Part shown: piece by piece, positions 180 through 58,897 of the stretch
How the letters are laid out: every line of letters begins with the position of its first letter
Numbering within the stretch: position 1 is the first letter of the stretch
Program-made: the position numbers and the translations under genes
Assembly: GCA_963816185.1 (NCBI GenBank)
Contig: CAWFJJ010000028.1
Coordinates: 96,001 to 160,000, forward strand
Direction of reading: 5' to 3'
DNA: 64,000 bases
Source: Thermoanaerobaculia bacterium
Lineage (GTDB): Bacteria; Acidobacteriota; Thermoanaerobaculia; UBA5066
Notes under the pieces: generated by a model
Seen by the model: the letters and a program-made list of their open reading frames with translations, nothing else
The model's database searches: none
Told to the model about the DNA's origin: nothing

Positions 180-2458
180 TGTCCACTCTCGTCGACGAAA
201 CCGTTCCCGCCACGGCTCCGGCCGGCTCGCTGTCACCCTTCCGGCTCACCGTCGAGCCGGATGGCCTCGCGCTCCTCGTCTTCGACACGCCGGGCGAGAA
301 GGTGAACAAGTACTCGACCCCCGTCATGAAGGAGTTCGAGAGCGTCGTCGACGGCCTCGCCGCGCGGACGGACGTGAAAGCGCTCCTCTTTCTCTCGGCC
401 AAGCCGGGAGTCTTCATCGCCGGCGCGGACGTGAACGAGATCGCCAAGGCCGACCAGAACGCGGATCCCGAGATGATCCGGGCCGGGCACCGGATCTTCA
501 ACAAGCTCGCGAACCTGCCTTTTCCCACGGTCGCCGCGATCGGCGGCGCGTGCGTGGGCGGGGGCTGCGAAACCGCTCTCGCGATGGACTGGCGGCTGGC
601 GTCCGACTCGCCCAAGACCCAGATCGGCCTCCCGGAGATCAAGCTCGGCATCCTGCCGGCGTGGGGCGGCACGACCCGTCTCCCGCGCATGATCGGCCTC
701 GCGAACGCCCTCGACGTCATCCTTGCGGGGAAGGTCCTCGACGGCAAGCGCGCGAAGAGGATCGGCCTCGTGGACGAGGTCGTCCCGGCGACCATCCTCG
801 AAGACTGGGCGAAGACGTTCGCCCGCGGGAAGTTCGGGACGAAGAAGCGCTCGAACGCGGGTCCGGGCGGCGCGCCGGCGCGCGTCCGCGAGCCGAAGCT
901 CGTGGAGAAGCTCCTCGAAGGGCCCGGAAAGAGCATCGTCTTCTCGAAAGCTCGCCAGTCGGTCCTGAAGGAGACGAAGGGCCAGTACCCGGCGCCTCTC
1001 GCCGCCCTCTCCGTCATCGAGAAAGGATTCGGCGAGGATTTCAAGAAGGCGCTCGAATTCGAGGTCGAAGGCATCAGGTCTCTCATCGGCACGCCGGTCA
1101 TGCGGAGTCTCGTGGGCCTCTTCTTCCGAATGGAAGAGGTCAAGAAGGAGACGGGCGTGGAAGCGCTCGGGGCTCCGGGCGCCGGCATCAAGCCGCGGAA
1201 GATCGCGCGCATTGGCGTCCTGGGCGCGGGCGCCATGGGAGGCGGCATCGCCCAGCTCGCCGCCGACAAGGGCTACCCGACGCGCATGAAGGACATCAAG
1301 GCCGAGGCGCTGGCGCTCGGATATGCGCAGGCGGCGCGTATCTGGAAGGAGCTGCTCAAGAAGCGCCGGATGACCCGCGCCGATTTCGCGAGGAAGATGG
1401 CGCTCCTGAGCGGATCGCTCGAGTACGCGGGCTTCGAGGGCTGCGACATCACGATCGAAGCGGTGCTCGAGAAGATGGCCGTCAAGCAGGCGGTGCTGGC
1501 CGACTGGGAGCACGTCGCTCCCGCGAAGGCGATCTTCGCCTCCAACACCTCGACCCTTCCGATCACCGAGATCGCGTCGAAGGCGGCGCACCCCGAACGC
1601 GTCGTGGGGATGCACTTCTTCAACCCCGTGAACAAAATGCCTCTCGTCGAGGTCATCTACGGCGCGAAGACCGACCCCGAAGTGACGGCGACGATCTTCG
1701 ACCTCGCGAAGAAGCTGGGGAAGACGCCGGTCGTCGTCAAGGACTCGCCCGGCTTCCTCGTGAACCGCATCCTGAGCCCTTACATCGGCGAGGCGGCGCG
1801 GCTCCTGCTCGAAGGCAGCTCGATGGAGTCCGTCGATCAGGCGATGCGCGCGTTTGGAATGCCGGTGGGCCCGATCGAGCTCCTCGACGACGTCGGGATC
1901 GACGTCGCCGCCAAGGCCGGCGGGACGATGTCGGCCGCCTTCCCGGCGCGCATGCCTGCGGATCCGACTCTCGAAAAGCTCGTCGACGCGGGGCGACTCG
2001 GGCGGAAGGCGAAGAAGGGATTTTATTTCTACGAAAGGGAAAAGAGGGGCGGCCCCGATCCGGACGCATACCGCGATCTCGGACTCTCTTCACCTTCAAA
2101 GAATCCGAGTCTTTCTTCCTCCGAGATCCAGGACCGCCTGGTCCTCCCGATGATCAACGAGGCGGCCTTTTGCCTCGCGGAAGGCATCGTCGCGCGCCCC
2201 GCGAAGCTCGACCTCGCGATGATCTTCGGTACCGGCTTCCCGCCCTTCCGCGGCGGCCTGTGCGCGTACGCGGATTCCCTGCGGCGCGAAGGCGGTCGTC
2301 GAGGGCCTCGAGAAGCTCGCGCCGAGAAGGGTCCGCGCTTCACACCCGCCCCGCTTCTGGTGGAGATGGCCGAAGACCGAGAGAGAGAGATTTCTTCGAA
2401 TGTCGTGCGAGGGTCGGCAGCGCAAGACCACATTCACCTTCTAAGAAACACGCTCTGA
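179..2458 (+). CDS. fadJ: Fatty acid oxidation complex alpha subunit (enoyl-CoA hydratase + 3-hydroxyacyl-CoA dehydrogenase), FadJ/FadB family
   Basis: Crotonase motifs FIAGAD, GGGCE and LPEIKLG; GAGAMGGG Rossmann motif; SNTST and GMHFFNP. Compensating indels near 2280-2325 garble the C-terminus. Confidence 0.92.
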   Translation: MSTLVDETVPATAPAGSLSPFRLTVEPDGLALLVFDTPGEKVNKYSTPVMKEFESVVDGLAARTDVKALLFLSAKPGVFIAGADVNEIAKADQNADPEMIRAGHRIFNKLANLPFPTVAAIGGACVGGGCETALAMDWRLASDSPKTQIGLPEIKLGILPAWGGTTRLPRMIGLANALDVILAGKVLDGKRAKRIGLVDEVVPATILEDWAKTFARGKFGTKKRSNAGPGGAPARVREPKLVEKLLEGPGKSIVFSKARQSVLKETKGQYPAPLAALSVIEKGFGEDFKKALEFEVEGIRSLIGTPVMRSLVGLFFRMEEVKKETGVEALGAPGAGIKPRKIARIGVLGAGAMGGGIAQLAADKGYPTRMKDIKAEALALGYAQAARIWKELLKKRRMTRADFARKMALLSGSLEYAGFEGCDITIEAVLEKMAVKQAVLADWEHVAPAKAIFASNTSTLPITEIASKAAHPERVVGMHFFNPVNKMPLVEVIYGAKTDPEVTATIFDLAKKLGKTPVVVKDSPGFLVNRILSPYIGEAARLLLEGSSMESVDQAMRAFGMPVGPIELLDDVGIDVAAKAGGTMSAAFPARMPADPTLEKLVDAGRLGRKAKKGFYFYEREKRGGPDPDAYRDLGLSSPSKNPSLSSSEIQDRLVLPMINEAAFCLAEGIVARPAKLDLAMIFGTGFPPFRGGLCAYADSLRREGGRRGPREARAEKGPRFTPAPLLVEMAEDREREISSNVVRGSAAQDHIHLLRNTL
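2379..2457. repeat. Dispersed inverted-repeat element, copy A (fadJ 3' end)
   Basis: TTTCTTCGAA at 2391-2400 and TTCACCTTCTAAGAAA at 2433-2448. Confidence 0.7.
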
Positions 2459-2467
2459 GGAGCCGAA

Positions 2468-4251
2468 ATGTCCACCGTCAAGGAAGAGACCCCGTCAAGA
2501 CCGAAACCGCCGAAATCGAGTCCTTCCTGAAAGCGATGTTTCAGGGCCACATCGCGGAGGATCTCGTCTTTCCGTTCCCCGAGGTCCCGCAGGACGTGAA
2601 GGAGACCGTGGAGGCGTTTGCCGGCGCCTATGCGGAGTTCGACGCGGCCCATCTCGACTCCGAGAAGATCGACGCGGCTCACTTCTTCCCGCGCGAGGCC
2701 GTGAAGGCCATGGGCGAGCTGGGAGTCCTCGGCATGACGATTCCCGAGGAATACGGCGGCAGCGGCTTCTCGTCGGCGGCGTACTGCCGGATGACGGAGA
2801 CGATCGCGCCGCTGGATGCCTCCGCCTCCATCGTCGTCGGAGCTCACCTGTCGATCGGCTGCAAGCCGGTCGTTCTCTTCGGAAACGAGGTTCAGAAGAA
2901 GAAGTGGCTGCCGGACCTCGCGAGCGGAAAGCTGGTCGCGGCTTTCTGCCTCACGGAGCCGGAAGCCGGCTCGGACGCGGGCTCGCTCAAGACGACCGCC
3001 GTCTACGACCCCGCCACGAACGAGTACGTCCTGAACGGCACGAAGCAGTGGATCTCGAACGGAGGCTTCGCGCGCTTCTTCACCGTGTTCGCGCGCATCC
3101 CTTCCGACATCGCCGAGAAGGACAAGCACAAGGAAATCTCCTGCTTCGCGGTGGTCGCGAACGAAGACGGCTCCCTGCCCGGCCTCTCGCGCGGCCCCGA
3201 GGAGAAGAAGCTCGGCCTGTGCGCGTCGTCGACCTGCCAGGTCATCCTCGAGAACTGCCGCATCCCGGCCGCCAACCTCATCGGCGAGAAGGGCCATGGC
3301 TTCAAGATCGCCCTCGAGACCTTGAACACGGGCCGCACGTCGCTCGGCGCCGGATCCGTCGGCGGCTCGAAGATGATGCTCAAGCTCGCGGTCGACCACG
3401 CGACGCAGCGCAGGCAGTTCAAGACCCGCATCGCAGACTTCGAGATGATCCGCCACAAGATCACGCGGATGACGGCGACGACCTATGCCCTCGAGTCGAT
3501 GGTCTACCTGACCGCGAGCCTCGTCGACCGGAACGTCGGCGACTACTCGCTCGAGGGCGCCTGCTGCAAGGTGTTCGGGACCGAGGTCCTGTGGCAGAAC
3601 ATCAACGACAGCCTGCAGATCGCCGGCGGCAACGGCTTCATGAACGAGTACCCGTACGGGCGCGCGCTGCGCGACAGCCGCATCAACATGATCTTCGAGG
3701 GCACGAACGAGATCCTGCGCCTCCTCCTCGCCCTCTCGGGCATGAAGGAGCTCGGCGATTCTCTGAAAGAGGTCCAGAGCGCGCTGAGGAGCCCGCTCGC
3801 GCAGCGCGGAGTCCTCACCGAGTACGCCCACAAACGCCTCAAAGGCGTCATCACGCACGACAAGCTCACGAAGGTGCACCCGTCTCTCGCGCCGGAGGCT
3901 GATCAGGTCGGGCGGTACGCGGGCGTCTTCGCGAATGCGTGCGAGACGATCCTGAGAAAGCACGGGAAGAAGGTCGTCGACCGCGAGTACCAGCAGGAGC
4001 GTCTCGCCGACGTCCTCATCGACCTCTTCGCCCAGATCGCGACGCTCTCCCGCGTGACGGCTTCGATCGCAAAGAAGGGCGAGGAAAAGGCTGCCGGGGA
4101 GATCGAGATCGCGCGCTGGTTCTGCCAGCAGGCCAGGCACCGCATCGTCGCGAACCTCAAGGCCCTCGACAAGAACCGCGACAGGGACTGCACGTCGATC
4201 AGCGACCGGGTGTACGAGGCGGGCGGCTACCCATACGATCTCTGGGCTTAG
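2468..4251 (+). CDS. Long-chain (VLCAD/ACAD9-like) acyl-CoA dehydrogenase, apparent frameshift near 2490
   Basis: FCLTEPEAGSDA, LNGTKQWISNG, RRQF and IFEGTNEI motifs. GAGGAG at 2457-2462 precedes ATG 2468 (MSTVKEETP), which needs one frame change to join VKTETAEIESFLK. Confidence 0.9.
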
Positions 4252-4294
4252 GACTTTCGCGCGTCGAGCGAATGCAGAGTATCGAGTGAAGTTG

Positions 4295-4400
4295 TTTTTC
4301 TTAGAATGGTAATGAGGCCCAGGGCGCGCCGCGTCGTCACCGCGGATGACGAACGGCGTGGCACGTCGCAGCGCTCTTCCTCTCCTTCATTCATAGAAAC
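4295..4400. repeat. Dispersed inverted-repeat element, copy B (MBL hydrolase 5' end)
   Basis: TTTCTTAGAATGGT at 4297-4310 and TTCATAGAAA at 4390-4399. Confidence 0.6.
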
Positions 4401-5343
4401 TCTTTCGGTCCCCACTCCCTTTCCCGTCGGGCCGGTCAACGTCCATGTGATCCTGCGCGATCCCATGACGCTCATCGACAGCGGGCCGCTGACGGAGGAG
4501 GCCTGGGACGCGCTCGAAGCGGGCCTGAAGAGGTTCGGCCGCAAGGTTTCCGACGTGAAGCGCGTGCTGCTCACCCACGGCCATCAGGACCATTTCGGCC
4601 TCGCGGAGAAGGTGGCCGGCGCTTCGGGCGCGACGCTGTATGGCGGGAGGCTCGACCGTCACAATTTCCGGCAGGAGCGCAGCCACGGGCTGCTCCTCGA
4701 GGACATGGCCCGCGCGGGCTTCGGTCTCCTTCCGCGCCTCGCGGTCGTCGCCTCCGTCGCGGCCGTCGACCGCTTCGCGAAGCCGCTCGAGGTGTGGGAC
4801 GCGCTCTCGGGCGGGGAAATTCTGCCGGGCGACGGCTGGAGCGTCGTCGTGCGGTCGACGCCCGGTCATACGCCCGGCAGCCTCACGTTCGAGATCCCCG
4901 AAGCAGGCGTCCTCTTCACGGGCGACACCGTCCTCAAAGAGATCACGCCGAACGCGGTCGTCGACGAGGACCCCGAGAAGTCCGGCAGCCCTTTTCGCAG
5001 CGTCACGCGCTATTTCGAGACGCTCGACGAGCTCGGGAGGACGAGCGGGGATGCCAAGCTCCTCACCGGCCACGGCGCGCCCATCCCGGACTGGCACGCC
5101 CACAAGAGCAGGCTCGACCGGCGCTACGGCCTGCGGATCGATCAGATCGTGCGGCAGCTCGCAAAAGGCCCGGCCACTGTGCGCGATCTCGTGGCCGCGA
5201 TCTTCCCGCACGTGAAAACGCTGAACGTTTTCCTCGCCTACAGCGAGATCTTCGGCTTCCTGATGTACCTCGAGGACGCGGGGCGGGTCGAGAAGCTCGT
5301 CGAGGAGACGCGCGACCTCTACCGGCTCCTGCCCACCGCCTGA
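4306..5343 (+). CDS. MBL-fold metallo-hydrolase
   Basis: THGHQDH, TPGHTPG, FTGD and GHG motifs. Start uncertain because the N-terminus overlaps a repeat copy. Confidence 0.88.
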   Translation: MVMRPRARRVVTADDERRGTSQRSSSPSFIETLSVPTPFPVGPVNVHVILRDPMTLIDSGPLTEEAWDALEAGLKRFGRKVSDVKRVLLTHGHQDHFGLAEKVAGASGATLYGGRLDRHNFRQERSHGLLLEDMARAGFGLLPRLAVVASVAAVDRFAKPLEVWDALSGGEILPGDGWSVVVRSTPGHTPGSLTFEIPEAGVLFTGDTVLKEITPNAVVDEDPEKSGSPFRSVTRYFETLDELGRTSGDAKLLTGHGAPIPDWHAHKSRLDRRYGLRIDQIVRQLAKGPATVRDLVAAIFPHVKTLNVFLAYSEIFGFLMYLEDAGRVEKLVEETRDLYRLLPTA

Positions 5344-6053
5344 TCAGCGGCAGCGGATTTGGAGCGATGAGGCCGTGTCCTCGCCCACCTGCGTGTTGTT
5401 CAGGTTGTTGTCCCTTTCGCGGAATTCGGTGCGCCTGCCGCGGTAGTCGGGGTGTTCGTAGAGGATCGCCACGCATCCCGGAGAGACGTCGATCGAGCTC
5501 GCCATGCGGCTGCCGAATCGCGTGCGATCGAGGTCCGGGACGTCGCCATCGAAGAACTGGCTCGGGCCGCGCGCCTCGCGGTCGCGGTAGAGGACGGCGC
5601 CTCGGGGCGACTCGGGGGAGGCCCGTATTCGGGCCGCCCCGGAGACCCGGGCCGATAAGGACGATCCTCGTGCCAGTCGGGGTGGTAATGGGTTTCGGGG
5701 CCGGAATGCCGGCAGTTGACCCGCAGCGACGAGGCGGTGTCCTCGCCCACGGCGGTGTTCGAGAGGTCGTTGTCGGGAGCGCGAAACTCGGCGCGCCGGC
5801 CGCCGAAGCGGGGCTTCTCGTAGAGCACGGCGACGCAGCCGGGCGGCACGGCGATCGAGCTCGCCCTCCGGCTGCCGAACTGCGTGTACCGGAGGTCCGG
5901 CACGTCGTCGTAGAAGGTCTGGGAGGGCCCCCGCAAGGAACGATCCCGGAAGAGGGTCACACCCTGCGCCGGCGCAGGCCGGGCGCCTGCTACAGCCGCG
6001 AGAACGAGCAGGGCAGAGGACAGGGCTCGGAGGAGGGCTGTACTTTTCTCCAC
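5344..6053 (-). CDS. Secreted protein with two beta/gamma-crystallin-like domains, frameshift near 5600
   Basis: Signal peptide, then domain 1 (GVTLFRDRSLRGPSQTF...ASSIAVPPGCVAVLYE...DTASSLRV). After a frame change comes domain 2 (GAVLYRDREARGPSQFF...ASSIDVSPGCVAILYEHPDY...DTASSLQIRCR), ending at 5344. Confidence 0.8.
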
Positions 6054-6113
6054 TCGGGATTCCTCCGTAGTCGGTGCTTACTTTGATATCCTACGTCGCC
6101 GGAGGACCGCCAG

Positions 6114-7031: not shown

Positions 7032-7059
7032 CGCTGAAGAAGCGCTGAGCCGCGACGAG

Positions 7060-7089: not shown

Positions 7090-7111
7090 GAGCGGATTCT
7101 GGAAAGATCAC

Positions 7112-7825: not shown

Positions 7826-7831
7826 CGCGCC

Positions 7832-10917: not shown

Positions 10918-12146
10918 CGGCCGTTCTCGCCGTCATAGCCTTTCTCTGGCTGCTCCGCGCGGCGAACGTCGCGCTGAGCTTTGCCCTGATTCCCCGGCTC
11001 GCGCCGGCGCCCCGGAGAGAGGCCGGCGTACCCTTCGTGTCGATCGTCGTTCCGGCGCGAAACGAAGAGCGCGACGTCGGGGACGCGACGCGCAGCAAGT
11101 GCATGCAGGACGACCCGTCCTTCGAGGTCGTCGTCGTGGACGACCGGTCCTCGGACGGCACGCGCCGCATCCTCGCGGGCCTCGAGCGCGAATTCCCGAA
11201 GGTCCTCTCGGTCGTCGACGGAGTCGAGCCGCCGCCCGACTGGCTCGGCAAGCCGCACGCGCTGGACGAGGGGGCACGTGCGGCACGCGCGCGGGCGTCC
11301 TCCGAATGGCTGATCTTCTCGGACGCCGACGTGCACTTCGCGCCGGACCTCCTGGCCCGCGCATTCACGCACGCGGAGCGCGAGCGCCTCGACTTCCTGA
11401 GCCTATTCCCGGCGCTCGAGATGAAGTCGTTCGGGGAGAGGCTCATGACGCCGTCCGATCGCGAACGTCGGGTTCTGCTACCTGCCCGGCTGGCTGATGA
11501 ATCGTTCCGCGGGCGCGCTCCTTCGGCGGGGGAGCAGGCGTCTTCAACCTCGTACGACGTGACCTCTTCGACAGGATCGGCGGGCACGCGGCCCTGAGAG
11601 AGCTCGGTCGTCGACGACATCCAGCTCGGCCGCAACGCGCGATTGGCCGGCGGCCGGACCGGAGGCGCGTGGGCGCTCGACGCCGTCTCCGTGCGCATGT
11701 ACCACGGCTTTCGGGAGACCGCGAAAGGGTTCGCCAAGAACGGCTATTACGGAATTGGCGCAAACGTGCCCGCGGCGGTGCTTTGCCTTCTGCTGTTTTT
11801 CTTAGAAGGTGAATTGGCATACGGCGTACTCGCCGGTGGCGCGCTCGAGTGGGGTGCACGGCACGCCGGCGCTGCGGGCGCGGCATTTTCCGACAGCCGC
11901 GTCCTCGCACCCGCCCTGTTCACTTTCAAAGAAATCCTCTTCTCCTTCTTGATTGTCGCGCTGACGCTTCTCGTGCGCGGGGCTCTGCACATGAAGCTCC
12001 GTTATTCGTGGCTCGGAGTCGTCCTGCATCCCGTATGGATCGCCGCGGTCACCGGCATTTTCGCGTGGTCGACGTTCGTGAACGGCGTGCTCGGGAGGAA
12101 CGAGTGGCGCGGGCGCGTGCGCGACGCCGGGACGCTCGAGTTCTGA
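10914..12146 (+). CDS. Membrane GT2 glycosyltransferase (CrtQ/HpnB-like), several apparent frameshifts at 11455-11610
   Basis: VSIVVPARNEE, VDDRSSDGT, WLGKPHAL and FSDADV; then in other frames GGHAA, VVDDIQL, RMYHG and C-terminal EWRGR. Confidence 0.82.
11798..11950. repeat. Dispersed inverted-repeat element, copy C (inside GT2)
   Basis: TTTCTTAGAAGGTGAA at 11798-11813 and TTCACTTTCAAAGAAA at 11919-11934; 14/16 inverted match. Confidence 0.75.
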
Positions 12147-14786: not shown

Positions 14787-16240
14787 ATGCGCCTCGGTCA
14801 TTGCTTCGGTCTGGGCCGCCGTCATCCTCGCGGCACCGCCGCTTGCGGCTGCCGAACCCGCCCACGCGGCTTCTAAGAAATCCCCGGTTTCCCGGGTCTC
14901 TTCGGTCGATACCCTCGATCACGGCCGCGCACGTCCTGACGATGGACGGCTCGGATCGCGTCTTTTCTCCCGGTGCGGTGGCGATCAAGGGCGGCGCGAT
15001 CGTCGCGGTCGGCGCTCCGTCAGATCTCCTTCGTCTCTATTCTCCGAAGCAGAGGATTTCCCGTGCCCATTCGGTCGTCCTGCCGGGGCTGATCAACACG
15101 CACACGCACGCCGCGATGAACCTGCTGCGCGGCATCGCGGACGACCTCCCGCTCATGGACTGGCTGACGAAGTTCATCTTTCCGGCCGAGGCGAAGAACG
15201 TCTCGCCCGGCTTCGTGAAGGCCGGAACGCTCCTCGCGTGCGCGGAGATGGTCCGCGGCGGCACGACGACGTTCGCCGACATGTACTACTACGAATCGGA
15301 CGTCGCGGCGGCGGTGGACACGTGCGGGATGCGCGCCGTCCTGGGCGAGACGTGGCTCGACTTCCCCGTACCCGACCACAAGGACCTCGCCGATTCGATC
15401 AAGGTGACCCGCGCCTTCCTCGAGAAATGGAAGGGCCACCCGCGCATCATCGCGGCCGTCGCCCCGCACGCGCCGTATACGAACGCGAAGGAGTCTCTCC
15501 AGGCTGCGAAGGCTCTTGCGGACGAGTTTCACGCCCCGCTCCTCATTCACCTTTCCGAAACACGCGACGAGCAGAAGCAGCTCGCGGGGAAGTATGGGAC
15601 GACGCCCACGAACTGGCTCGAATCGATCGGCTTCCTGGGTCCGAACGTCCTCGCGGCCCACTGCGTCTGGTGCGACGCGGACGACCTCCGCCTCCTTTCC
15701 GAGCGGCACGTCGGCCTCTCGCACAACCCCGAGTCGAACATGAAGCTCGGGTCCGGGGTCGCGCCCGTCGTGGCGGCGCGTCGCGTCGGCATCGCCGTCG
15801 GCCTCGGGACGGACGGCGTCGCGGGCTCGAACAACGACCTCGACATGTGGGAGGCGATGGACTTCGCCGGGAAGCTCGCGAAAGTCTCTTCGATGGACCC
15901 GACGGTGCTGCCGGCGAGAGACCTCCTCCGGATGGCGACGATCGAGGGCGCGCGGGCGATGAAGATGGACGATCGCATCGGCTCGCTCGAGAGGGGGAAG
16001 CGAGCGGATCTCGTGGCGGTGGACCTCGTCCGGGCGGGGACGCAACCCGTGTGGGACCTGTTCTCGACCCTCGTCTACGTCGTCAAGGAAAGTGACGTCT
16101 CGCTCACGATGGTGGAAGGACGCGTCCTCTGGGACGGCAAACGCGTCACGTCTCTCGACGAGGCGAAGGTCATCCGGGACGCCGAGGCGTGGCGGAAGAG
16201 GATCGCGGCGTCGCTCACGGCGCCCGCCGCGGCGAAATGA
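14787..16240 (+). CDS. MtaD-like (MTA/SAH deaminase family) amidohydrolase with probable signal peptide; frameshifts near 14812 and 14917
   Basis: PGLINTHTH, APHAPYT, IHLSET, AAHCVW, HNPESNMKL and LGTDG motifs. Reconstructed N-terminus is MRLGHCFGL-AAVILAAPPLAAAEP. Confidence 0.85.
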
Positions 16241-20988: not shown

Positions 20989-23070
20989 GTGCTGTACAGG
21001 CTCGAAAACGTCCGCAAGAGCTTCGGGACGAAGGACGTCCTTCTGGACGCCACGTGGCAGCACGATCCGGGGCGGATCGTGGGCCTCGTGGGGCGGAACG
21101 GCGCCGGCAAGTCGACCGTCCTGAAGATCGTCCAGGGGCTCGTGGAGCCCGACGGTGGCAAGCTGCACGTCGCGGGCGGAACTACGTTCGCGTCGCTCGA
21201 CCAGGCGGTCGAGCCCGAAGGCGACGAGCCGCTTCGGGCATTCGTGGCGCGCGCCCAGGAGCCGCTTCTCGCGCTGGAGCGCGAGATGCGCCGCCTCGAG
21301 GAGGCGATCGCCACGCACGGCGCCGACGGCGACCGCGGGGCGCTCGACGCGCTCCTGGCCGAGCACGACGACGTGCGCGAGCACTTCGAAAGAGCGGGCG
21401 GTTACGAGGCGGACGCGCGCGTGGACCGGGTGCTGATGGGCGTCGGGCTCGCGCGCGCGCTCTGGGAGAGGCCCGTGGGCGAGCTGTCGGGCGGGCAGAA
21501 ACATCGCGCGCAGATCGCCCGGCTCCTCCTGACGGACGCCTCGGTTCTCCTCCTCGACGAGCCCACGAACCATCTCGACGTCGACGGAATCGAGTTCCTC
21601 GAGACCTGGATCGTGGAGCGGAAGGCGAACGCCGGCCTCTCGGCGCTCGTCGTCTCCCACGACCGCCGCCTTCTCGATGCCGTCGCGGACCGGATCGTCG
21701 AGGTCGCGCACGGCCGTCTCGAAGACTACCCGGGCGACTACGCTACCTACCGCAAGCTCAAGGCCGAGCGCGAGCGTCTCCGCGCGAAGGAGGCCGAGAA
21801 GCAGCGGCAGATGATCGAGCGGACCGAAGAGTTCATCCGCCGGAACATCGCCGGCCAGAAGACGAAGCAGGCGCGCTCGCGGCGCACGATGCTCGCGCGG
21901 ATCGAGCGAATCGAGGCGCCGCGGGAGGATGCGAACGAGGTCTCGATCCGGTTCGAGGAGGCGCGCATCTCCGGAGGGCGCGTGCTCGAGGCGAAGAAGG
22001 TCGTGCCCGGCTACCGGGAGACGGGACCGCTTCTTCAGCCCGTGTCGTTCCTCCTCCGCCGCGGGGACCGCCTCGCGCTCTGGGGCCCGAACGGCTGCGG
22101 CAAGACCACGCTTCTGAAGACGCTCGCGCGCGTACTCCCTCCGATCTCCGGCTCGGCCGTGCCGGGTACCGGAGTCCTCACCGGCTACTACGACCAGGAG
22201 ATGGGCGACCTTCCGGTCGAGGCGACGGCGCTCGACGCGGTGATGGATCTCGATCCCACGATGAAGGAAAGCGAGGCACGCGATTTCCTCGCGCTCTTCG
22301 ATTTCCGCGGCGACGAGGTCTTCCAGCGAATCGCGACTCTCTCGGGCGGCGAGAAAGGGCGCCTCTCGCTCGCACGCATCGTCTTCGGCGGCGCGAACTT
22401 CCTCCTGCTGGACGAGCCCACGAACCACCTCGACCTCGACGCCCGCGAGCAGCTCGAGGACGCGCTGGAGGCTTTCGAGGGCGCGATCATCTTCGTAAGC
22501 CACGACCGCTGGTTCGTGGACCGCATCGCGACGGAGATTCTCGAGATCGCGCCCGGAGGCGCGGTCGAGCTGCACCCGGGCAACTATTCGGATCTCGTGA
22601 AGAGGAAGAAGGAAATTCTTGCTCCCTCGCGGGACGACTCGGCGGAGCGCGGCGACCTACGGTGGGGCTCGGGAAACGCTGTTTCTTCTTCGAAGGGGAA
22701 GAGAGACAAAGATTCTTCGAAGGGCAAGACCGGTCGCGGCGCACCCCGCACCGCTGGAGCGCAGCCCGCTGCTTCCGCTGGACACACACCTTCTAAGAAA
22801 TCCTCGTCTTCTTCCGACCGCGCCGCCGAACGGCGGCGCGCAAAGAACGAGAGAATCCTCGCCGTGCTGGAAGAGGAGATTGCGCGTCTCGAGGAGGAGA
22901 TCCGCTCGCTCGATCTTTCCCTCGCGAACCCCGACGTCTTCCGCGACGGGGACAAGGTCCGGCAGGTGAAGTCCGCTCGCGAGCAGGCTCGCAGGACCCT
23001 CGAGGCGAAGCTGTGGGATTGGGAGGAGACCTCCCGCAAGCTTCAGACGAGCGCCGAGGTCCCGGCGTGA
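20989..23070 (+). CDS. ABC-F family ATPase
   Basis: Two ABC cassettes (GRNGAGKST, LSGGQ, DEPTNHLD; GPNGCGKTT, LSGGE), no TM helices, and a C-terminal coiled coil. Confidence 0.94.
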   Translation: MLYRLENVRKSFGTKDVLLDATWQHDPGRIVGLVGRNGAGKSTVLKIVQGLVEPDGGKLHVAGGTTFASLDQAVEPEGDEPLRAFVARAQEPLLALEREMRRLEEAIATHGADGDRGALDALLAEHDDVREHFERAGGYEADARVDRVLMGVGLARALWERPVGELSGGQKHRAQIARLLLTDASVLLLDEPTNHLDVDGIEFLETWIVERKANAGLSALVVSHDRRLLDAVADRIVEVAHGRLEDYPGDYATYRKLKAERERLRAKEAEKQRQMIERTEEFIRRNIAGQKTKQARSRRTMLARIERIEAPREDANEVSIRFEEARISGGRVLEAKKVVPGYRETGPLLQPVSFLLRRGDRLALWGPNGCGKTTLLKTLARVLPPISGSAVPGTGVLTGYYDQEMGDLPVEATALDAVMDLDPTMKESEARDFLALFDFRGDEVFQRIATLSGGEKGRLSLARIVFGGANFLLLDEPTNHLDLDAREQLEDALEAFEGAIIFVSHDRWFVDRIATEILEIAPGGAVELHPGNYSDLVKRKKEILAPSRDDSAERGDLRWGSGNAVSSSKGKRDKDSSKGKTGRGAPRTAGAQPAASAGHTPSKKSSSSSDRAAERRRAKNERILAVLEEEIARLEEEIRSLDLSLANPDVFRDGDKVRQVKSAREQARRTLEAKLWDWEETSRKLQTSAEVPA
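22697..22815. repeat. Dispersed inverted-repeat element, copy E (ABC-F linker)
   Basis: GATTCTTCGAAGG at 22711-22723 and CCTTCTAAGAAATC at 22789-22802. Confidence 0.75.
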
Positions 23071-29822: not shown

Positions 29823-30067
29823 AGCTCGATATCGCGCGCGGGCGACTTGTCGCGCTCGAGATCGAGATCCGCTCCGACGAGCGGAGACCTCCTAAGAAAC
29901 TCGTAGAGAGAAAGCTGTTTCCTTTTCTTCAGCCGCTCGTACTCGGCGATCGAAAGCACGACGGCCGCCGGCTCACCGCGGACGCTGATCTCCTGCGGCG
30001 CCTCTCGGGCCGACTTGACGACTTCGCTGAGCCGGGCCTTCGCTTCCTGGAGCTGCCAACGTCGCAT
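29819..30067 (-). CDS. Phd/YefM family antitoxin
   Basis: WQLQEAKARLSEVV...PQEISVRGEPAAVVLS...FLRRSPL. Confidence 0.92.
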   Translation of the reverse strand: MRRWQLQEAKARLSEVVKSAREAPQEISVRGEPAAVVLSIAEYERLKKRKQLSLYEFLRRSPLVGADLDLERDKSPARDIEL

Positions 30068-52016: not shown

Positions 52017-52019
52017 TCG

Positions 52020-52061: not shown

Positions 52062-52075
52062 AAAAGGAGGACGTC

Positions 52076-52549: not shown

Positions 52550-52597
52550 CCGTCGAACGTTTTTCACGGAACACGGGCTTGCTTCCCCCGAGGCGGG

Positions 52598-53579: not shown

Positions 53580-53637
53580 CCGCTGATCCTACGGGATCTC
53601 GCTTGGCATCTTCACGTCTTCTTCCTATGCTCCGGCC

Positions 53638-54606
53638 ATGACGATCAGCGCGTTCCTGAAGCATCATTTCCGCCATTTCAACTCCGCGACTCTCGTGGAC
53701 GCGGCAGAAGCCTGGAAGGATCTCCTCGCGGGCGGCGGCCGGATGTTCCTGACGATGGCCGGAGCGATGTCGACGGCCGAGCTCGGGCTGTCGCTCGCCG
53801 AGATGATCCGGCAGGGGAAGGTCCACGCCATCACGTGCACGGGCGCGAATCTCGAGGAGGACGTCTTCAACCTCGTGGCGCACGACCACTACGTGCGTCT
53901 CCCGAACTACCGCGAGCTGAGTCCCGCCGAGGAGACCGCGCTGCACGGGCGGCACCTGAACCGCGTCACGGACACGTGCATTCCGGAGGAGGAGGCGATC
54001 CGGCGGATCGAGCGTGCTGTGCTCGACGAGTGGACCGCGGCGGACCGCGAGGGCAAGCGTTACTTCCCGCACGAGTTCATGTACCGGATCCTTCTCTCCG
54101 GCGTACTCAAGGAGCACTACCAGATCGACCCGAAAGACTCGTGGCTCCTCGCGGCGGCCGAGAAGGACCTTCCGATGTTCGTCCCCGGCTGGGAGGACTC
54201 GACGCTCGGCAACATCTTCGCCGCGCACTGCATCGAGAAGGAGATCAAGAACGTCCACACGGTGCGGACGGGCATCGAGTACATGACGGCTCTCGCCGAG
54301 TGGTACACCTCGACCTCTCCGAAGAATCCGGTCGGCTTCTTCCAGATCGGCGGCGGCATCGCGGGCGACTTTCCGATCTGCGTCGTGCCGATGCTCCACC
54401 AGGATCTCCGGCGGGACGGCGTGCCGCTGTGGGCGTATTTCTGCCAGATCAGCGACTCCACGACGAGCCTCGGGAGCTACAGCGGCGCCGTCCCGAACGA
54501 GAAGATCACGTGGGGCAAGCTCGGCGCGAAGACGCCGCGGTTCGTCATCGAGTCCGACGCGACGATCGTCGCGCCCCTCATGTTCGCGTTCGTGCTCGGG
54601 TGGTGA
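53638..54606 (+). CDS. Deoxyhypusine synthase family protein
   Basis: AGAMST, TGANLEED, RVTDTCIPEE, IGGG and SYSGAVPNEKITWGK motifs. Confidence 0.92.
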   Translation: MTISAFLKHHFRHFNSATLVDAAEAWKDLLAGGGRMFLTMAGAMSTAELGLSLAEMIRQGKVHAITCTGANLEEDVFNLVAHDHYVRLPNYRELSPAEETALHGRHLNRVTDTCIPEEEAIRRIERAVLDEWTAADREGKRYFPHEFMYRILLSGVLKEHYQIDPKDSWLLAAAEKDLPMFVPGWEDSTLGNIFAAHCIEKEIKNVHTVRTGIEYMTALAEWYTSTSPKNPVGFFQIGGGIAGDFPICVVPMLHQDLRRDGVPLWAYFCQISDSTTSLGSYSGAVPNEKITWGKLGAKTPRFVIESDATIVAPLMFAFVLGW

Positions 54607-55526
54607 GCCGGGTGAGAAGGGCTGGTCTCCTTTTCCTTGCGGTGACGGCGCTCGGAGCCGGCGCCTGCCGAAAGAGCGAGCCGCCGAAGCCCGCCGCGGG
54701 CCTCGAGAGGCCCTATGCCCTGAAGGGCGTCGTCGTGTCAGTCGACCGCGCGGGCGGGAAAGTCACCGTCAAGCACGACGAGATCCCGGGCTATATGGAA
54801 GCCATGACGATGCCGTTCGCAGTCTCCGAGCCGAAGATCCTCGAGGATCTCAAGCCCGGCGACACGATCGAGGCGAAGCTCCTCGTCGGCGAACGCAGCT
54901 CGCACCTCGAAGGCATCGTCGTGTCGCGTCCGCCCGGCACGCCGTCCGTCCAGACGATCCCCGCGCTCGGGGACTACGGGAAGCCGGGCGATGCCGCGCC
55001 GGCCACCGTTCTCGTGGACCAGGAAGGAAAGCCGCTCTCGCTCGCGGATTTCAGGGGCAAGGCCGTGGCGGTGACGTTCATCTTCACGCGTTGCCCGCTC
55101 CCGGACTTCTGCCCGCGCATGAACCTGAACTTCTCGGAGGTCGAGCGCCGCCTCGCGACGGATCCGAAGCTCTACGGCGCCACACAGCTCCTCTCGGTCA
55201 GCTTCGACCCCGAGCACGACACGCCGGCCGTCCTGAAGGCTTTCCGGGAGCCGTTCCTGAAGGGAGTCCCCGACGTGGTGCCGGGCCACTGGCGCTTCGC
55301 CACGGGCACGCTCGAGCGGATCAAGGAGTTCGCGGGATTCTTCGGCCTCACGTACCTCAAGACGGGAGACCAGTTCGTTCACAGCCTCGCGACCGCGGTC
55401 ATCTCTCCTGACGGGAAACTCCTTTCGATCCGGCGAGGCAACGACTGGGAGCCGAAGGAGCTCGTGGATGACCTGAGACGAGCGGCCGCGGGCGAGAACC
55501 GACACGTCAAGGCGGCCTCGAAATGA
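54603..55526 (+). CDS. Lipoprotein with CusF-like N-terminal domain and SCO domain
   Basis: Lipobox AGAC, VKHDEIPGYMEAMTMPF, FIFTRCPLPDFCP and FVHSL motifs. Confidence 0.88.
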   Translation: MSRVRRAGLLFLAVTALGAGACRKSEPPKPAAGLERPYALKGVVVSVDRAGGKVTVKHDEIPGYMEAMTMPFAVSEPKILEDLKPGDTIEAKLLVGERSSHLEGIVVSRPPGTPSVQTIPALGDYGKPGDAAPATVLVDQEGKPLSLADFRGKAVAVTFIFTRCPLPDFCPRMNLNFSEVERRLATDPKLYGATQLLSVSFDPEHDTPAVLKAFREPFLKGVPDVVPGHWRFATGTLERIKEFAGFFGLTYLKTGDQFVHSLATAVISPDGKLLSIRRGNDWEPKELVDDLRRAAAGENRHVKAASK

Positions 55527-56131
55527 AGGCGCTCCGGCTCGCGGTTTTCTGCGCCGCGGTCCTTCTCGGAATGCTGGGCCTTCACCAGCTCGTGTACGCT
55601 CTCATGAGCCGTGGACATGCCTCCGACCTGCCGATGCTGGGACACGTCCCCGATTTCGCCTTCGTCTCCGAGCGCGGCCGGCCGGTCGCCGCGCGCGACC
55701 TCGAGGGCAAGGCATGGATCGCCGACTTCATCTTCACGCGCTGCGGCGGCACGTGTCCGGCGATGTCCGAGAGGATGGCGGAGCTAGCGCGTACTCTGAA
55801 GGACGAGCCCGGCGTGGCGTTCGTCTCGTTCGACGTGGATCCCGAGCACGACAGCCTGGCCGACCTCGCCACGTATTCGCGCCAGCACCGGGCCGATCCC
55901 GAACGCTGGACGTTTCTGCGCGGCGAGAGCGCGGCCGTGCGCGCCCTCGCGGGCGAGGGTTTCAGGCTCGCGGTCGTGGACGGCCACGCCGACGATCCGG
56001 AGCCGATCCTTCATTCCTCGCGCTTCGTCCTCGTCGACGGAACGCGGGAGATTCGCGGCTATTACGACGGGCTCGAGGCCGGCGGCGTCGAGAAGCTCGC
56101 TGACGACGCGCGACGGCTCGCGAAGGACTGA
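55523..56131 (+). CDS. SCO1/SenC family copper chaperone
   Basis: DFIFTRCGGTCP, VDPEHDS and ILHSSRFVLVD motifs. Confidence 0.92.
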   Translation: MKALRLAVFCAAVLLGMLGLHQLVYALMSRGHASDLPMLGHVPDFAFVSERGRPVAARDLEGKAWIADFIFTRCGGTCPAMSERMAELARTLKDEPGVAFVSFDVDPEHDSLADLATYSRQHRADPERWTFLRGESAAVRALAGEGFRLAVVDGHADDPEPILHSSRFVLVDGTREIRGYYDGLEAGGVEKLADDARRLAKD

Positions 56132-56149
56132 CGACCCTATACTCCGCGC

Positions 56150-56851
56150 GTGTCGATTCTCGAGGCGCACGGCCTCACGAAGACGTACCACGTCGGGAGC
56201 GAGAAGGTCGTCGGCGTCTCCGACGCCACTCTCGCTCTCGACGCGGGGTCCTTCACGGTCCTCGCCGGCCCCTCCGGCAGTGGCAAGACCACGCTCCTGA
56301 ATCTCCTCGGCGTTCTCGACCGGGCGGACTCCGGGACGCTCCTCTTCGAAGGGCACGACGTCTCGGGCCTCGATGAGCGCGCTCGCGCGCGGCTTCGCCG
56401 CGAGAAGCTCGGATTCGTCTTCCAGGCATACCAACTCGTGCCCGTGCTCTCGGCGGAGGAGAACGTCGCCCTCGCCCTTTGGATCCGGGGCCTCCCGGAC
56501 GAGGAATGCGCGTCGCGCGCTCGCGCGGCCCTCGCGGCCGTCGGCCTCGAGGGGCTCGAGAGCCGGCGGCCCGACGCGCTCTCGGGCGGACAGCGGCAGC
56601 GTGTCGCGGTGGCGCGCGCCCTCGTGGGCGAGCCCGTGCTCATCCTCGCGGACGAGCCCACGGCGTCGCTCGACTCGGAGACGGCGGCTCACCTTCTCGA
56701 CCTTTTCGAAGAGCTTCACCGCTCGCGCGGCGTCGCCTTTCTCTTCTCGAGCCACGATCCTCGCATCGTCGAGCGGGCGGAACGGCGCATCTCTCTTCAG
56801 GACGGACGCGTCGTCGCGGATGAGTACGCGCCTACTGGAGCACGCGCGTGA
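56150..56851 (+). CDS. ABC ATPase, LolD/MacB family
   Basis: GPSGSGKTT, GFVFQ, LSGGQRQRVAVARAL and ADEPTASLD motifs. Confidence 0.92.
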   Translation: MSILEAHGLTKTYHVGSEKVVGVSDATLALDAGSFTVLAGPSGSGKTTLLNLLGVLDRADSGTLLFEGHDVSGLDERARARLRREKLGFVFQAYQLVPVLSAEENVALALWIRGLPDEECASRARAALAAVGLEGLESRRPDALSGGQRQRVAVARALVGEPVLILADEPTASLDSETAAHLLDLFEELHRSRGVAFLFSSHDPRIVERAERRISLQDGRVVADEYAPTGARA

Positions 56852-58077
56852 GCCGTTGGGCGCGCTTCGCGGCGCGGAACCTCCGGCGCCACGCACGCCG
56901 GACTTTCCTCACGGGCTCGATCGTCGTCGTCGGATTCGTGGCGGTCACGATGACGTCGGGCTTCGTCTCCCAGACGTTCTCGTCATTGAAGGCGGCGACG
57001 ATCCGCGGGACCGGCGGCCACCTGCGCCTCCTCGACCCCAAGGCGGCGGGGAAGACGGACGACGAGGCGGCCGTCCTGATGCTGGACGACTGGCAGGGCC
57101 TCGCAGCCGTCGTGAAGAAGGACCCGCGCGTCGTCCAGGCCATGCCGAAGCTCTCGTTCTTCGGCCTCGTCGCGAAAGGCGAGAAGAGCGCGGCTTACAT
57201 CGGCACCGGAACCATTCCCGCGCTCGAGAAGAACGCTTCTCTCGCCTCCGACACGGTCGTATCCGGGACGTTCTTCTCGAATCCGGACGCGGACGACGTG
57301 ATGCTCGGCTCCGGACTCGCGCGCGCGATCGGCGCGAAAGTTGGCGAGCTCGTCACCGTGATGGCGACGACTCCCGACGGCTCGCTGAACGCGGTGGATG
57401 CGACCGTCGTCGCGGTGCTCTCGTATCCGATCAAGGAGATCGACGACCGGCTCCTGTTCCTGCCTTATGCGGCGGCCTCGAAGCTCCTCAAGTCCGAGGG
57501 GAAGGCGAACACGCTCGTCGTGCTCCTCAAGGACGACGCCGACGTGGATGCGGCCGCGCGCGACCTCGGCAAGAGCCTCGAGGCGGCCGGCCGCCCCGTC
57601 GTCGTGAAGACGTGGCTCGAGACGGCGGCGTTCTACAAGCAGGTCAAGCTCCTCTACATCGCGATTTTCTTCTTCATGGGCCTCGTCCTCTCGATCGTCG
57701 TCATCCTCGCCGCCGCGAACACGATGACGATGTCCGTCTTCGAGAGAACGCGCGAGATCGGGACGCTTCTCGCGATCGGGATGGAACGCGGGCAGATCCG
57801 GACGCTTTTCCTTCTCGAAGGCTTCCTCCTCGGCGCCGTCGGATCTGTGATCGGCGCGATCGCCTCGTTCCTCCTGCGGCTCGCGCTGAACGCGTCGGGA
57901 ATCATGCTGCCGCCTCCTCCGGGCGGAACGCGCGGAAACGTCCTGCACGTCGACTTCATCCCGCTCGCGTACGGAATCGGGTTCGCGATCATGTCACTCA
58001 CCCTCCTCATCGCCGCGTGGTGGCCCGCGCGCCGCGCGGCGCGGCTGAACCCCGTGGAGGCTCTCGGGCATGTGTGA
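56848..58077 (+). CDS. ABC permease, LolC/E-FtsX family
   Basis: RNLRRHARRT, SVFERTREIGTLLAIG and PARRAARLNPVEAL motifs. Confidence 0.92.
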   Translation: MSRWARFAARNLRRHARRTFLTGSIVVVGFVAVTMTSGFVSQTFSSLKAATIRGTGGHLRLLDPKAAGKTDDEAAVLMLDDWQGLAAVVKKDPRVVQAMPKLSFFGLVAKGEKSAAYIGTGTIPALEKNASLASDTVVSGTFFSNPDADDVMLGSGLARAIGAKVGELVTVMATTPDGSLNAVDATVVAVLSYPIKEIDDRLLFLPYAAASKLLKSEGKANTLVVLLKDDADVDAAARDLGKSLEAAGRPVVVKTWLETAAFYKQVKLLYIAIFFFMGLVLSIVVILAAANTMTMSVFERTREIGTLLAIGMERGQIRTLFLLEGFLLGAVGSVIGAIASFLLRLALNASGIMLPPPPGGTRGNVLHVDFIPLAYGIGFAIMSLTLLIAAWWPARRAARLNPVEALGHV

Positions 58078-58897
58078 GAAAGAGAAGAAAGAGAGGATTC
58101 TTCGAATGGTTAATGGGCCTTTCGGCGCGTCCGAACGCTGCCCGGCGCGAGCAGCCTCTGCGGCGCGACGCGTCCCATATTCCCTTCTAAGAAATATTCT
58201 CTTTCCTTCTCTTGCCTTTGCCTCCGTCTCTCGTGCGGACGACCCCGCGGCGCTGCTGCGCCGTGCGGAGCGCATCAAGGAGGCCTGGCCGGAGGTCGTC
58301 ATCACGCTGCGCGTGACGACGACGAAGCCCGGCGCAGCGCCTGCGGGTGGGACTTTCGCAGTCGAGGCGAAGGGCCGCGACAAGTCGCGCATCCGCTTCC
58401 TGAATCCGTCCGACGCCGGCAAGTCCGTCGTTCAGGTGGGAGACGAGGTCTGGCTCGTCCTGCCGAACACGCGCAATCCGATCCGCGTGCCGAAGAGTCA
58501 TCGCCTTCAGGGTGGGTTCTCGGCGGCCGACATGGCCCGCACGCGGTTCGTGGACGACTACGACGCGGCCCTGGAGAGGACCGACGTCCTGAACGGCATG
58601 AAGTGCGCCGTTCTGCGCCTCACGGCGAAGGCGGGGAAGAATCCGTCGTATCCGATCGTGCGCGTGTGGATCGACGAGAAGGAAGGTCTCTACCGCAAGG
58701 CGGTCTTTCTCGTCTCCTCCGGAAAGACCGCGCGGGAAACGACCTTCGACGAGTACCGTCCGTTCCACGGCGTCCTCTCGCTCGCGAAAATGACGATCGT
58801 CGATACGCTCCGGCCGGGAACGACGGTCGTCGAATACCTCGACTACGAGAAGAAGAGCCTGCCGGATTCAATCTTCGAGCCGAAGGCCGTGCCTTAG
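58070..58897 (+). CDS. Outer-membrane lipoprotein-sorting (LolA-like) protein; N-terminus contains a repeat copy
   Basis: RFLNPSDAGK, VWLVLP, GGFSAADM and YPIVRVWID motifs, plus operon context. Confidence 0.8.
   Translation: MCEKEKKERILRMVNGPFGASERCPARAASAARRVPYSLLRNILFPSLAFASVSRADDPAALLRRAERIKEAWPEVVITLRVTTTKPGAAPAGGTFAVEAKGRDKSRIRFLNPSDAGKSVVQVGDEVWLVLPNTRNPIRVPKSHRLQGGFSAADMARTRFVDDYDAALERTDVLNGMKCAVLRLTAKAGKNPSYPIVRVWIDEKEGLYRKAVFLVSSGKTARETTFDEYRPFHGVLSLAKMTIVDTLRPGTTVVEYLDYEKKSLPDSIFEPKAVP
58081..58212. repeat. Dispersed inverted-repeat element, copy F (LolA-like 5' end)
   Basis: AGAGAAGAAAGAGAGGATTCTTCGAATGG and CCCTTCTAAGAAATATTCTCTTTCCTTCTCT, about 30-bp imperfect arms. Confidence 0.8.

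Follow-up and report, generated by a model that had tools for sequence, protein, structure and literature searches.

A 64,000-nucleotide stretch of a Thermoanaerobaculia genome (assembly GCA_963816185.1, contig CAWFJJ010000028.1, positions 96,001 to 160,000; hereinafter the window) carries an AT-rich 10-mer, TTCTAAGAAA, that recurs in both orientations inside and between genes of unrelated function. The original prediction, made from the letters of the window, proposed either an element of the kind of Rickettsia palindromic elements (RPE) or miniature inverted-repeat transposable elements (MITE), which adds peptide segments to proteins, or paired binding sites overlaid on coding DNA. Which of these better accounts for the repeat was analyzed in the source genome (G000; 5.09 Mb, 30 contigs, approximately 67% GC), where the window lies within contig C28, and in related genomes. 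The repeat was found to be a genus-restricted family of arms kept for their DNA sequence and arranged mostly as inward-facing pairs. Paired DNA-level recognition sites, spread by selection or by a drive resembling that of uptake signals, offer the best reading, which we hold tentatively, its chance of being right falling slightly short of even.

Anatomy, pairing and distribution of the arms

The 10-mer matched the window six times, four on the forward and two on the reverse strand, at exactly the predicted positions, compared with no match in each of 100 dinucleotide shuffles. Genome-wide, 239 copies were observed against 0.6 expected from base composition, and it was the most over-represented 10-mer of G000 when a poly-A assembly artefact was set aside. 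At C10:1146-2240, a run of 1028 A or T and a second run of 65, which look like an assembly artefact, account for 1076 A10 counts in the 10-mer tally.

Alignment of the 239 copies revealed an arm of approximately 30 nt, consisting of an outer purine or pyrimidine run, the core, and an inner GGTGAATGGGG/CCCCATTCACC. The right (R) arm reads, in order, an inner C-rich stretch with TTCaCC, the core TTCTAAGAAA, TCC, and a fading pyrimidine run; the left (L) arm is its reverse complement, a purine run followed by ATTTCTTAGAAGGTGAATGGGG. In the information profile, the 12-mer CCTTCTAAGAAA was nearly invariant and its flanks were weaker. A typical unit comprised a purine run, an L arm, 40-100 nt of GC-rich sequence, an R arm, and a pyrimidine run, in agreement with the outer runs and variable GC-rich interior described at first. 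The edges of units were not sharp, conservation fading into the purine and pyrimidine runs. Both orientations were equally frequent, with 76 forward and 73 reverse copies of the 12-mer in G000. Arms were called by a weight matrix (PWM) built from the 239 copies, which gave 998 arms at a score of 12 (354 with a reversed-matrix control) and 693 arms at a score of 18 (83 with the control; hereinafter strong arms).

Consecutive sites up to 500 bp apart were predominantly inward-facing genome-wide (LR 297, LL 69, RR 59, and RL 30; for strong arms only, LR 195, LL 37, RR 32, and RL 12), as had been noticed in the window. An inward-facing partner within 500 bp was present for 531 of 693 strong arms (77%), and the other 162 were solo. 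The spacing in G000 had its mode at 69-88 bp, with a tail to approximately 200 bp. A spacing class of 93 bp corresponded to at least 12 paralogous Ser/Thr kinase genes, in which the coding sequence of FFEGEE...SFEEI mimics the arms. This class was removed from the later counts (fold, covariation, interior, gene-context, and spacing tests); in all of these except the interior test, the filter (core-to-core span of 100-106) dropped every pair spaced 90-96, including any true elements. The kinase genes have the arm-like codons in the N-lobe and a Ser-rich insert after them; several are clustered at C24:602899-620305, and others are located at C23:5304, C28:51683, and C28:382671.

These kinase paralogs are what speaks for chance, codon usage, or paralogy as the source of the repeat. 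For the family as a whole, this explanation is refuted, its probability being negligible: the excess of the 10-mer was found both genome-wide and under a synonymous null (described below), a reversed-pattern control gave 0-2 copies per genome, and the kinase class had been taken out of the later counts.

With respect to genes, 119 of 263 pairs (approximately 45%) were located inside called genes. The other 144 lay between genes, in tandem (112), divergent (23), or convergent (9) spacers; the convergent class was under-represented, 9/144 compared with 14% of all spacers. Pairs inside genes lay within or between domains of RNase R, UvrA, UvrD/PcrA, RecG, an AddA-like helicase, AspRS, LysRS, and CysRS. 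Further hosts were a TrpC-TrpF fusion, MeaB, MiaB/RimO, RsmH, a GHMP kinase, a ComEA-like protein, and an ABC-F protein. Pfam matches were obtained for 19 of 20 further host proteins scanned beyond the window.

Across the class, the 12-mer CCTTCTAAGAAA was tallied in 201 genomes. In addition to the 149 copies in G000, 45-138 copies were detected in the 11 other sampled genomes of the same genus (12/12 positive). In the sister genus, 16 copies were present in G169, and none were found in the other 7 genomes of the family. The remaining 181 genomes of the class contained 0-4 copies, with G019 and G024 (unpublished) at zero, and the 12-mer written backwards occurred 0-2 times in any of the 201 genomes. 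The arm family is genus-restricted, and the 12-mer is a sharp marker for the genus. Public records matching a 16-nt piece of the motif were mostly metagenome-assembled genomes (MAGs) of Thermoanaerobaculia or Acidobacteriota. Viral contigs were uninformative as carriers; the 16-mer gave only single matches per contig, which look like chance in AT-rich phages.

The copies in the window are the following.

2439, 14871, 22791, 58185 (+) and 4297, 11798 (-): exact 10-mer TTCTAAGAAA
2026..2104: degenerate arm pair in a FadB-like gene (179..2458); L 2026-2035, R 2095-2104; PWM 22.0 and 16.9
2391..2448: arm pair at the 3' end of the FadB-like gene; L 2391-2400 (TTCTTCGAA variant), R 2439-2448 (exact core)
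4297..4399: arm pair between a thiolase stop (4251) and a metallo-beta-lactamase-fold gene; L 4297-4306, R 4390-4399 (TTCATAGAAA variant)
11798..11934: arm pair inside an open reading frame (ORF), 11643..12146 (+); L 11798-11807, R 11925-11934 (TTCAAAGAAA); PWM 34.5 and 28.4
14871..14880, + strand: solo R arm past the signal-peptide region of an amidohydrolase gene; partner L arm missing in G000
22685-22694 (L), 22712-22721 (L) and 22791-22800 (R), + strand: two tandem L arms and an R arm in the linker of an ABC-F ATPase (20989..23070)
58071..58194: pair in the spacer that separates an FtsX-like permease gene (stop 58077) from a LolA-like gene; L 58097-58106, R 58185-58194

Among the variant copies listed at first, those at 2026, 2095, 2391, 4390, 11925, 22685/22686, 22712/22713, and 58097/58098 were recovered by the PWM, and the one at 29889 fell below its threshold and was not counted. 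The 17-mer said to be common to two copies, ATTCACCTTCTAAGAAA, was present at 2432-2448 and, as the reverse complement, at 11798-11814.

Constraint on the arms and their origin

A count against a codon-aware null had been suggested with the original prediction. When synonymous codons were permuted within each gene (12 shuffles), the exact 10-mer was expected 0.5 +/- 0.6 times in called coding sequences and was observed 114 times, and the 9-nt core was observed 368 times against 65.8 +/- 9. F-L-E was encoded as TTC TTA GAA in 44 of 446 cases (0.24 expected from codon usage), S-K-K as TCT AAG AAA in 41 of 179 (1.34 expected), and L-L-R as CTT CTA AGA in 14 of 1174 (0.02 expected). TTA accounts for 0.3% of leucine codons in G000, where the bias toward GC at third codon positions (GC3) is 81%. 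In MiaB/RimO, D-F-L-E is written GAC TTC CTC GAG in the motif-free sister-genus genome G072 and GAT TTC TTA GAA in G000 and G014; two rows of this alignment with wrong coordinates (G014x and G169x) were disregarded. Reading in all three frames, also claimed at first, was observed throughout: the L arm reads FLEG(E), ISSK(G), or FLRR, and the R arm reads PSKK, LLRK/N, or FEEI. It is through the centre variants TTCTTCGAA and TTCGAAGAA that TAG or TAA is removed from the frame used. Solo arms in genes showed no strand bias (38 sense, 36 antisense).

The intergenic pair at 58071..58194 (hereinafter the 58k locus) was compared among 28 genomes of the genus, of which one had no arm, 11 had the R arm only, and 16 had both arms. 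TTCTAAG was intact in 23 of the 27 genomes with an R arm, and the flanks varied freely. G000 and G011 were the only genome pair compared at scale; 28 G000 pairs were mapped by their flanks to 880 kb of G011, and 26 of them were compared. At aligned positions, the core was 91% identical and the inner arm 72%; the interior and outer run stood at 75%, and the outer flanks at 81%. The 58k locus is stronger evidence of constraint than these identities. The motif is kept for its DNA sequence, and since independent arms share one consensus, were in part created in place (see below), skew codon usage, and lack strand bias, a DNA-level motif favoured as an inward pair is indicated.

To follow the origin of the arms, ten host proteins (approximately 20 arms) were aligned with their counterparts in motif-free genomes. 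The length was unchanged at seven arms, namely both of AspRS, both of MiaB/RimO, the R arm in LysRS and in RecG, and the L arm in RNase R; at each of these, clustered substitutions spanning 5-8 codons set the protein apart from its motif-free orthologs. The AspRS arms are spaced by 165 nt around native GAD-domain sequence, and the MiaB/RimO arms by 111 nt around strongly conserved sequence. Because both arms of these two proteins were made in place, in the correct inward orientation and around native sequence, the pair rather than the single arm appears to be favoured. Extra sequence of 8-60 residues contained both arms of UvrA, UvrD, and CysRS, the R arm of RNase R, and the L arms of a GltD-like protein, LysRS, RecG, and ABC-F. 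In total, approximately 7 arms had been made in place, approximately 12 were in insertions, and 1-2 were ambiguous. Judged from these alignments, part of the family originated in place.

The ABC-F linker was compared in more genomes. Of 11 aligned orthologs of the genus, one ends before the R arm, and the other 10 read P-S-K/R-K there (PSRK in one); at least one SSKGK copy was present in 6 of 11, and the interiors differ by in-frame indels. In orthologs of other families, the linker is shorter and the L-arm part is absent. Contigs assembled from RNA libraries, which aligned at 85% likeness and hence come from related soil organisms, have 12 nt in place of the L arms and interior, so that they differ by 114 nt with the frame kept; parts that these contigs did not cover were left out of the evidence.

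Most pairs are old and orthologous across the genus. Among the pairs mapped between G000 and G011, G011 lacked the pair at two or three loci and had only part of it at about four. At C1:278k, a full or shortened alignable pair was present in the near genome G003 and in the distant genomes G006, G014, and G214, the R arm only was present in G012 and G220, and G011, G008, and G001 lacked the whole unit, the gap having at least two different sets of ends. In the split-match table, this unit was missing from approximately 13 of 24 other genus genomes matched. Since it is common to near and distant genomes, the unit is ancestral there and has been lost repeatedly. No target duplication was found at the one clean empty site read (C1:278k, G011/G008 vs. 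G000), and the other differences were partial deletions. Two G011 loci that had seemed to hold insertions of 1.4-2 kb, and thus an autonomous parent, proved to be flank mis-mappings with the normal element present.

Parent elements were also sought by domain. The window had no matches to Y1_Tnp, DDE_Tnp_1, rve, IS110, or TnpB-type domains, and the initial statement that it contains no transposase holds for these five families, which were searched genome-wide, other families being outside the search. No match to the Y1/RAYT transposase (PF01797) was found in G000, whereas the same search was positive in 6 of 14 control genomes, and a TnpB-type domain was likewise not found in G000. Insertion sequence (IS) matches elsewhere in G000 comprised 25 rve, 11 IS110, and 1 DDE_Tnp_1. 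Approximately five near-identical rve-type and six IS110-type copies are present near contig ends, unrelated to the arms (C5:224071, C5:259815, C25:613573, C28:270418, C28:277569; C25:393243, C24:734084, and others); the IS110 copies have ends without arms and are not inserted in arms. No longer multi-copy element bounded by arms was found in this genome, whose completeness of 95% leaves such absence short of proof; the seven long-range arm pairs were all single copy, and the three of them that were examined hold housekeeping genes (RluD/Lgt/LspA; LeuRS; aminotransferase/amidohydrolase).

These results bear on an origin from an ancient, non-autonomous RPE/MITE-like element, which is a possible but doubtful explanation. 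A burst of hairpin-like insertions of approximately 100-130 bp before the radiation of the genus would have settled in spacers and, in frame, in tolerant gene loops; the transposase would since have been lost and the interiors decayed, the arms surviving by weak selection or slow decay, and arms that seem to have been made in place would reflect alignment ambiguity or local conversion. Inverted arms of one preferred size, high copy number restricted to one lineage, presence or absence of whole units between genomes, and the arm-bearing insertions in UvrA, UvrD, CysRS, the GltD-like protein, RecG, and LysRS fit such an origin, as does in-frame residence in housekeeping genes, a feature of RPE in the accessible text of PMC10969869. 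However, the consensus of the inner arm persists although this part diverges at the pace of the interior, a length change is lacking at both arms in AspRS, both in MiaB/RimO, and three others, the edges are not sharp, and neither a target duplication at the clean empty site nor a Y1, TnpB, or multi-copy arm-bounded element was found. The predicted addition of peptide segments, of 15-60 residues, was borne out in UvrA, UvrD, CysRS, the GltD-like protein, LysRS, RecG, ABC-F, and RNase R, but seven arms have the same length as their motif-free orthologs, which the original prediction had named as an outcome refuting insertion, and the shared interior, target duplication, and cognate transposase of an inserting element were not found in the comparisons made here.

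The interiors were compared all-against-all for 217 pairs, with contig C14, a near-duplicate of part of C24, left out. They were unrelated except for paralogous kinase genes and two other pairs (99.9th percentile score of 16, compared with 14 for shuffles), which is a further point against the ancient element. The interiors were also unstructured (mean fold z of 0.04 vs. -0.10 in controls). An interior hairpin or terminator was rejected on this ground and on the under-representation of pairs between convergent genes.

Whole units folded better than shuffles (mean z of -1.98; 48% of 145 below -2), as would be expected if the arms paired in transcripts of either strand and a double-strand-specific factor such as RNase III read the stem, giving global control of mRNA decay or translation. 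The palindromic design would serve genes of either orientation. The L arm, rich in purines and similar to a Shine-Dalgarno sequence, contains an ATG and supplies the start codon at two loci, and the R arm resembles the junction of the 16S rRNA 3' end and spacer. We nevertheless judge an RNA-level element clearly unlikely. Compensatory covariation was not found, matches between L and R arms within 263 pairs showing no excess over permuted partners (largest z of 2.7); the interiors lack structure, solo arms are common, and the R arm stands alone in 11 of 28 genomes at the 58k locus. In addition, long perfect stems within essential coding regions would be costly, and no Rfam match was obtained in the window.

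The likeness to 16S rRNA lies between the R arm (TTCACCTTCTAAGAAATC) and the genome's own 3' end and spacer junction (ATCACCTCCTTTCTAAGGGATC) at C1:445546 (L402:2249-2270). A 4-nt gap, in which the anti-Shine-Dalgarno core is lost, interrupts it. The L arm is correspondingly Shine-Dalgarno-like, and the likeness may be due to chance. The rRNA operon was also considered as an arm site, but no convincing arm was found in its leader or spacer.

Inverted repeats 60-200 bp apart with one consensus over many loci are the anatomy of invertase targets. The arm pairs share this anatomy, and each could flank an invertible segment recognized by a site-specific invertase, in genes as well as between them. 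This is very improbable, however. Inversion of the interior would abolish conserved domain sequence in RNase R, AspRS, or MiaB/RimO, and the interiors of in-gene pairs showed coding GC periodicity in the host frame only (0.746/0.577/0.783, compared with 0.683/0.504/0.81 in flanking coding sequence).

Proposed paired recognition sites and known systems

In the recognition-site reading, the arms would be copies of one sequence of approximately 30 nt with the near-invariant core CCTTCTAAGAAA and weaker flanks, kept at the DNA level and neither for the encoded peptide nor for stem formation. Two inward-facing copies 60-200 bp apart would be required or favoured. The most likely reader would be a lineage-specific DNA-binding or DNA-processing protein that acts on the inverted site pair, and a DNA-uptake receptor, a nucleoid protein, or a domesticated recombinase are candidates for this role. 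The site may have spread by selection or by an uptake-signal-like molecular drive. At tolerant protein positions, substitutions to rare AT-rich codons would have created sites within coding sequence already present, and in indel-prone loops and spacers they would arrive with short low-complexity insertions. Of the two explanations offered at first, paired binding sites over coding DNA, with a motif kept at the DNA level, fit better, although an old mobile origin may apply to part of the family.

The closest evolutionary analogue is the DNA uptake signal, and the family can be described by analogy as a dispersed palindromic, uptake-signal-like repeat. Uptake sequences occur in hundreds to thousands of copies and accumulate in coding DNA at poorly conserved residues, as stated in the part of PMC2817400 consulted. 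Like the uptake signal sequences of Pasteurellaceae (USS) and the DNA uptake sequences of Neisseriaceae (DUS), the arms have a core of 10-12 nt with weaker flanks, reach hundreds of copies with the strands equal, are lineage-specific, and occur within genes where the protein tolerates them, shifting the codons and peptides used locally (PMC2817400, same part). ComEC and a ComEA-like HHH_3 protein were present in G000, but they do not discriminate; ComEC was also matched in 10 of 14 control genomes.

RPE copies, by contrast, share a family consensus of approximately 150 bp that encodes a conserved peptide, according to the accessible text of PMC10969869. The arm family resembles them in being palindromic, lineage-restricted, and in frame in unrelated housekeeping genes to which peptide segments are added, in having no attached transposase, and in occupying orthologous positions across species. 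It differs in that only the arms of approximately 30 nt are common to the copies, without a family-wide conserved peptide and in three reading frames, that several arms arose by substitution without insertion, and that the host is a free-living acidobacterium of 67% GC.

Repetitive extragenic palindromes (REP) are GC-rich and carry a GTAG or CGTC head, as described in the consulted part of PMC3733652. As in REP and the composite forms BIME and REPIN, the arms are dispersed short repeats in inverted doublets with a less conserved spacer, mixed with other repeat motifs. Unlike those, the arms are AT-rich, the genome has no Y1/RAYT gene, and the spacing is broad rather than fixed; unlike the extragenic REP, close to half of the pairs lie inside genes. 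Bacterial MITEs (Correia, ERIC, Nezha) also have terminal inverted repeats, a total length of approximately 100-250 bp, high copy number, and occasional in-frame residence. However, the arm pairs have no internal sequence in common and no parent IS with the same ends, a target duplication was not seen at the single clean empty site that was read, and some arms arose in place. The arm family is not a classical MITE.

Several points weigh against paired recognition sites. No protein that reads the arm pairs was identified. The spacing showed no clear helical periodicity (best power of 5.55, at 9.5 bp), which argues against rigid looping or wrapping. Known uptake signals are approximately ten times denser and are not obligatorily paired, in contrast to the inward pairs at 60-200 bp found here; for USS and DUS, the genome and ORF counts of PMC2817400 give approximately 1 per 1.2 kb, compared with approximately 1 arm per 5-7 kb. 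The core identity of 91% between G000 and G011 is only modest evidence of constraint, since the neutral expectation is approximately 87% by our own calculation for sites chosen as intact in G000. The gene calls on which the coding results depend came from our own crude caller (codon log-odds). Further, approximately 12 of the 20 or so aligned arms lie in insertions relative to motif-free orthologs, and genus members differ in having or lacking whole pairs, flanks included, as single units, which is element-like. Because preferred size, arm-bearing insertions, and whole-unit presence or absence all look element-like, the recognition-site reading is held at slightly below an even chance and the ancient element is retained as a doubtful but real competitor.

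Should the arms prove to be recognition sites, a DNA-handling system new to science would be indicated in an abundant and uncultured soil lineage, where it might serve uptake, chromosome organisation, or recombination. The arms would also join uptake signals as a second case in nature in which a DNA motif is strong enough to alter proteins, with residues replaced and rare codons fixed in RNase R, AspRS, LysRS, RecG, and MiaB/RimO. A bolder version, which we consider rather unlikely, is that the family represents a new type of genome-wide signal, a motif of approximately 30 nt that works only as an inward pair and has been driven or selected so strongly in this one genus that clustered substitutions have written it into essential enzymes against the GC3 bias. 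In that case, Acidobacteriota would gain their first described system of uptake-signal-like or chromosome-marking sites, and no earlier system is known to depend on pairs. If it is instead an old mobile element, the family would be a free-living, high-GC counterpart of RPE and would bear on how new peptide segments enter essential proteins. The pairs also account for many of the seemingly long linkers, N-terminal extensions, and frame problems found in MAG annotations of the genus.

No description of the arm family was found in the literature, supplementary files being outside the search. Motif strings retrieved only unrelated primers and STAT sites, the literature on repeats of Thermoanaerobaculia gave nothing relevant, and searches combining in-frame palindromic elements with Acidobacteria returned only papers on Rickettsia, REP, and MITE.

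Individual loci and neighbouring repeats

Of the two pairs in the FadB-like gene, the degenerate one (2026..2104) is located between two 3HCDH C-terminal repeats, with Pfam domains on both sides, and G003 has a pair at the same place. The gene of G003 stops just past the L arm of the second pair (2391..2448), the remainder being intergenic. A +1/-1 indel pair relative to G003, at approximately 2290 and 2330, represents assembly errors or real frameshifts.

In the pair at 4297..4399, the L arm (4297-4306) holds the ATG of ORF 4306..5343, the metallo-beta-lactamase-fold gene. Compared with G003, the arms are nearly identical and the interior is far more diverged (approximately half of positions by eye), with a 6-nt indel. 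In the contigs from related soil organisms, this stretch is replaced by 27-28 nt. The arms inside ORF 11643..12146 read FFLEGE...FTFKEI; the ORF was without Pfam match, and the corresponding pair of G003 has a 15-nt interior indel.

At the amidohydrolase locus, G003 and G011 have kept the L arm, the inner part of which supplies the ATG, and the signal peptide is the interior. In the G000 gene, a 1-nt insertion relative to G003 and G011 at approximately 14930-14940, either an assembly error or a real frameshift, splits the signal peptide from the enzyme frame. The ABC-F arms read SSKGK...SSKGK...PSKKSSSSS in frame, between the second ABC domain and the C-terminal domain assigned by Pfam.

At the 58k locus, a purine run precedes the L arm, and a pyrimidine run follows the R arm to approximately 58215. 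An ORF of 25-27 codons extends from the L-arm ATG to the R-arm TAA (58104-58190) and is in frame in five of six long-form genomes translated by eye (G000, G130, G007, G215, and G219; not G004). It may be a locus-specific leader peptide; such ORFs were at chance level genome-wide. As a general feature, a mini-gene from L-arm ATG to R-arm TAA was rejected, since it was in frame in 23 of 70 oriented cases with both signals, the third expected by chance.

At C1:278170-278300, the pair lies exactly between a purine-rich ribosome-binding region and the start codon, which are adjacent in genomes without the pair. Pairing of the arms would bring the two back together.

Pair density varied several-fold among large contigs, from 4.7 and 4.6 per 50 kb in C24 and C28 to 0.9 in C29 and 1.5 in C8. 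The 45-kb contig C14 looks like a diverged inverted duplicate of part of C24 (C24:130000-180000), with several arm pairs matching one-to-one at 95-100% identity, which suggests a strain mixture in the MAG. Moreover, two other palindromic repeat families are nested inside or beside arm pairs, a hairpin TTCCCGAATGACCGATGTCAAGGG...CCCTTGACATCGGTCATTCGGGAA and a short hairpin CATATGCGGCGGCTGC...GCAGCCGCCGCATATG; they were observed outside the window at C28:441307-441499, C25:104916-105135, C24:151949-152181, and other sites, and also in the sister-genus genome G169 (L183).

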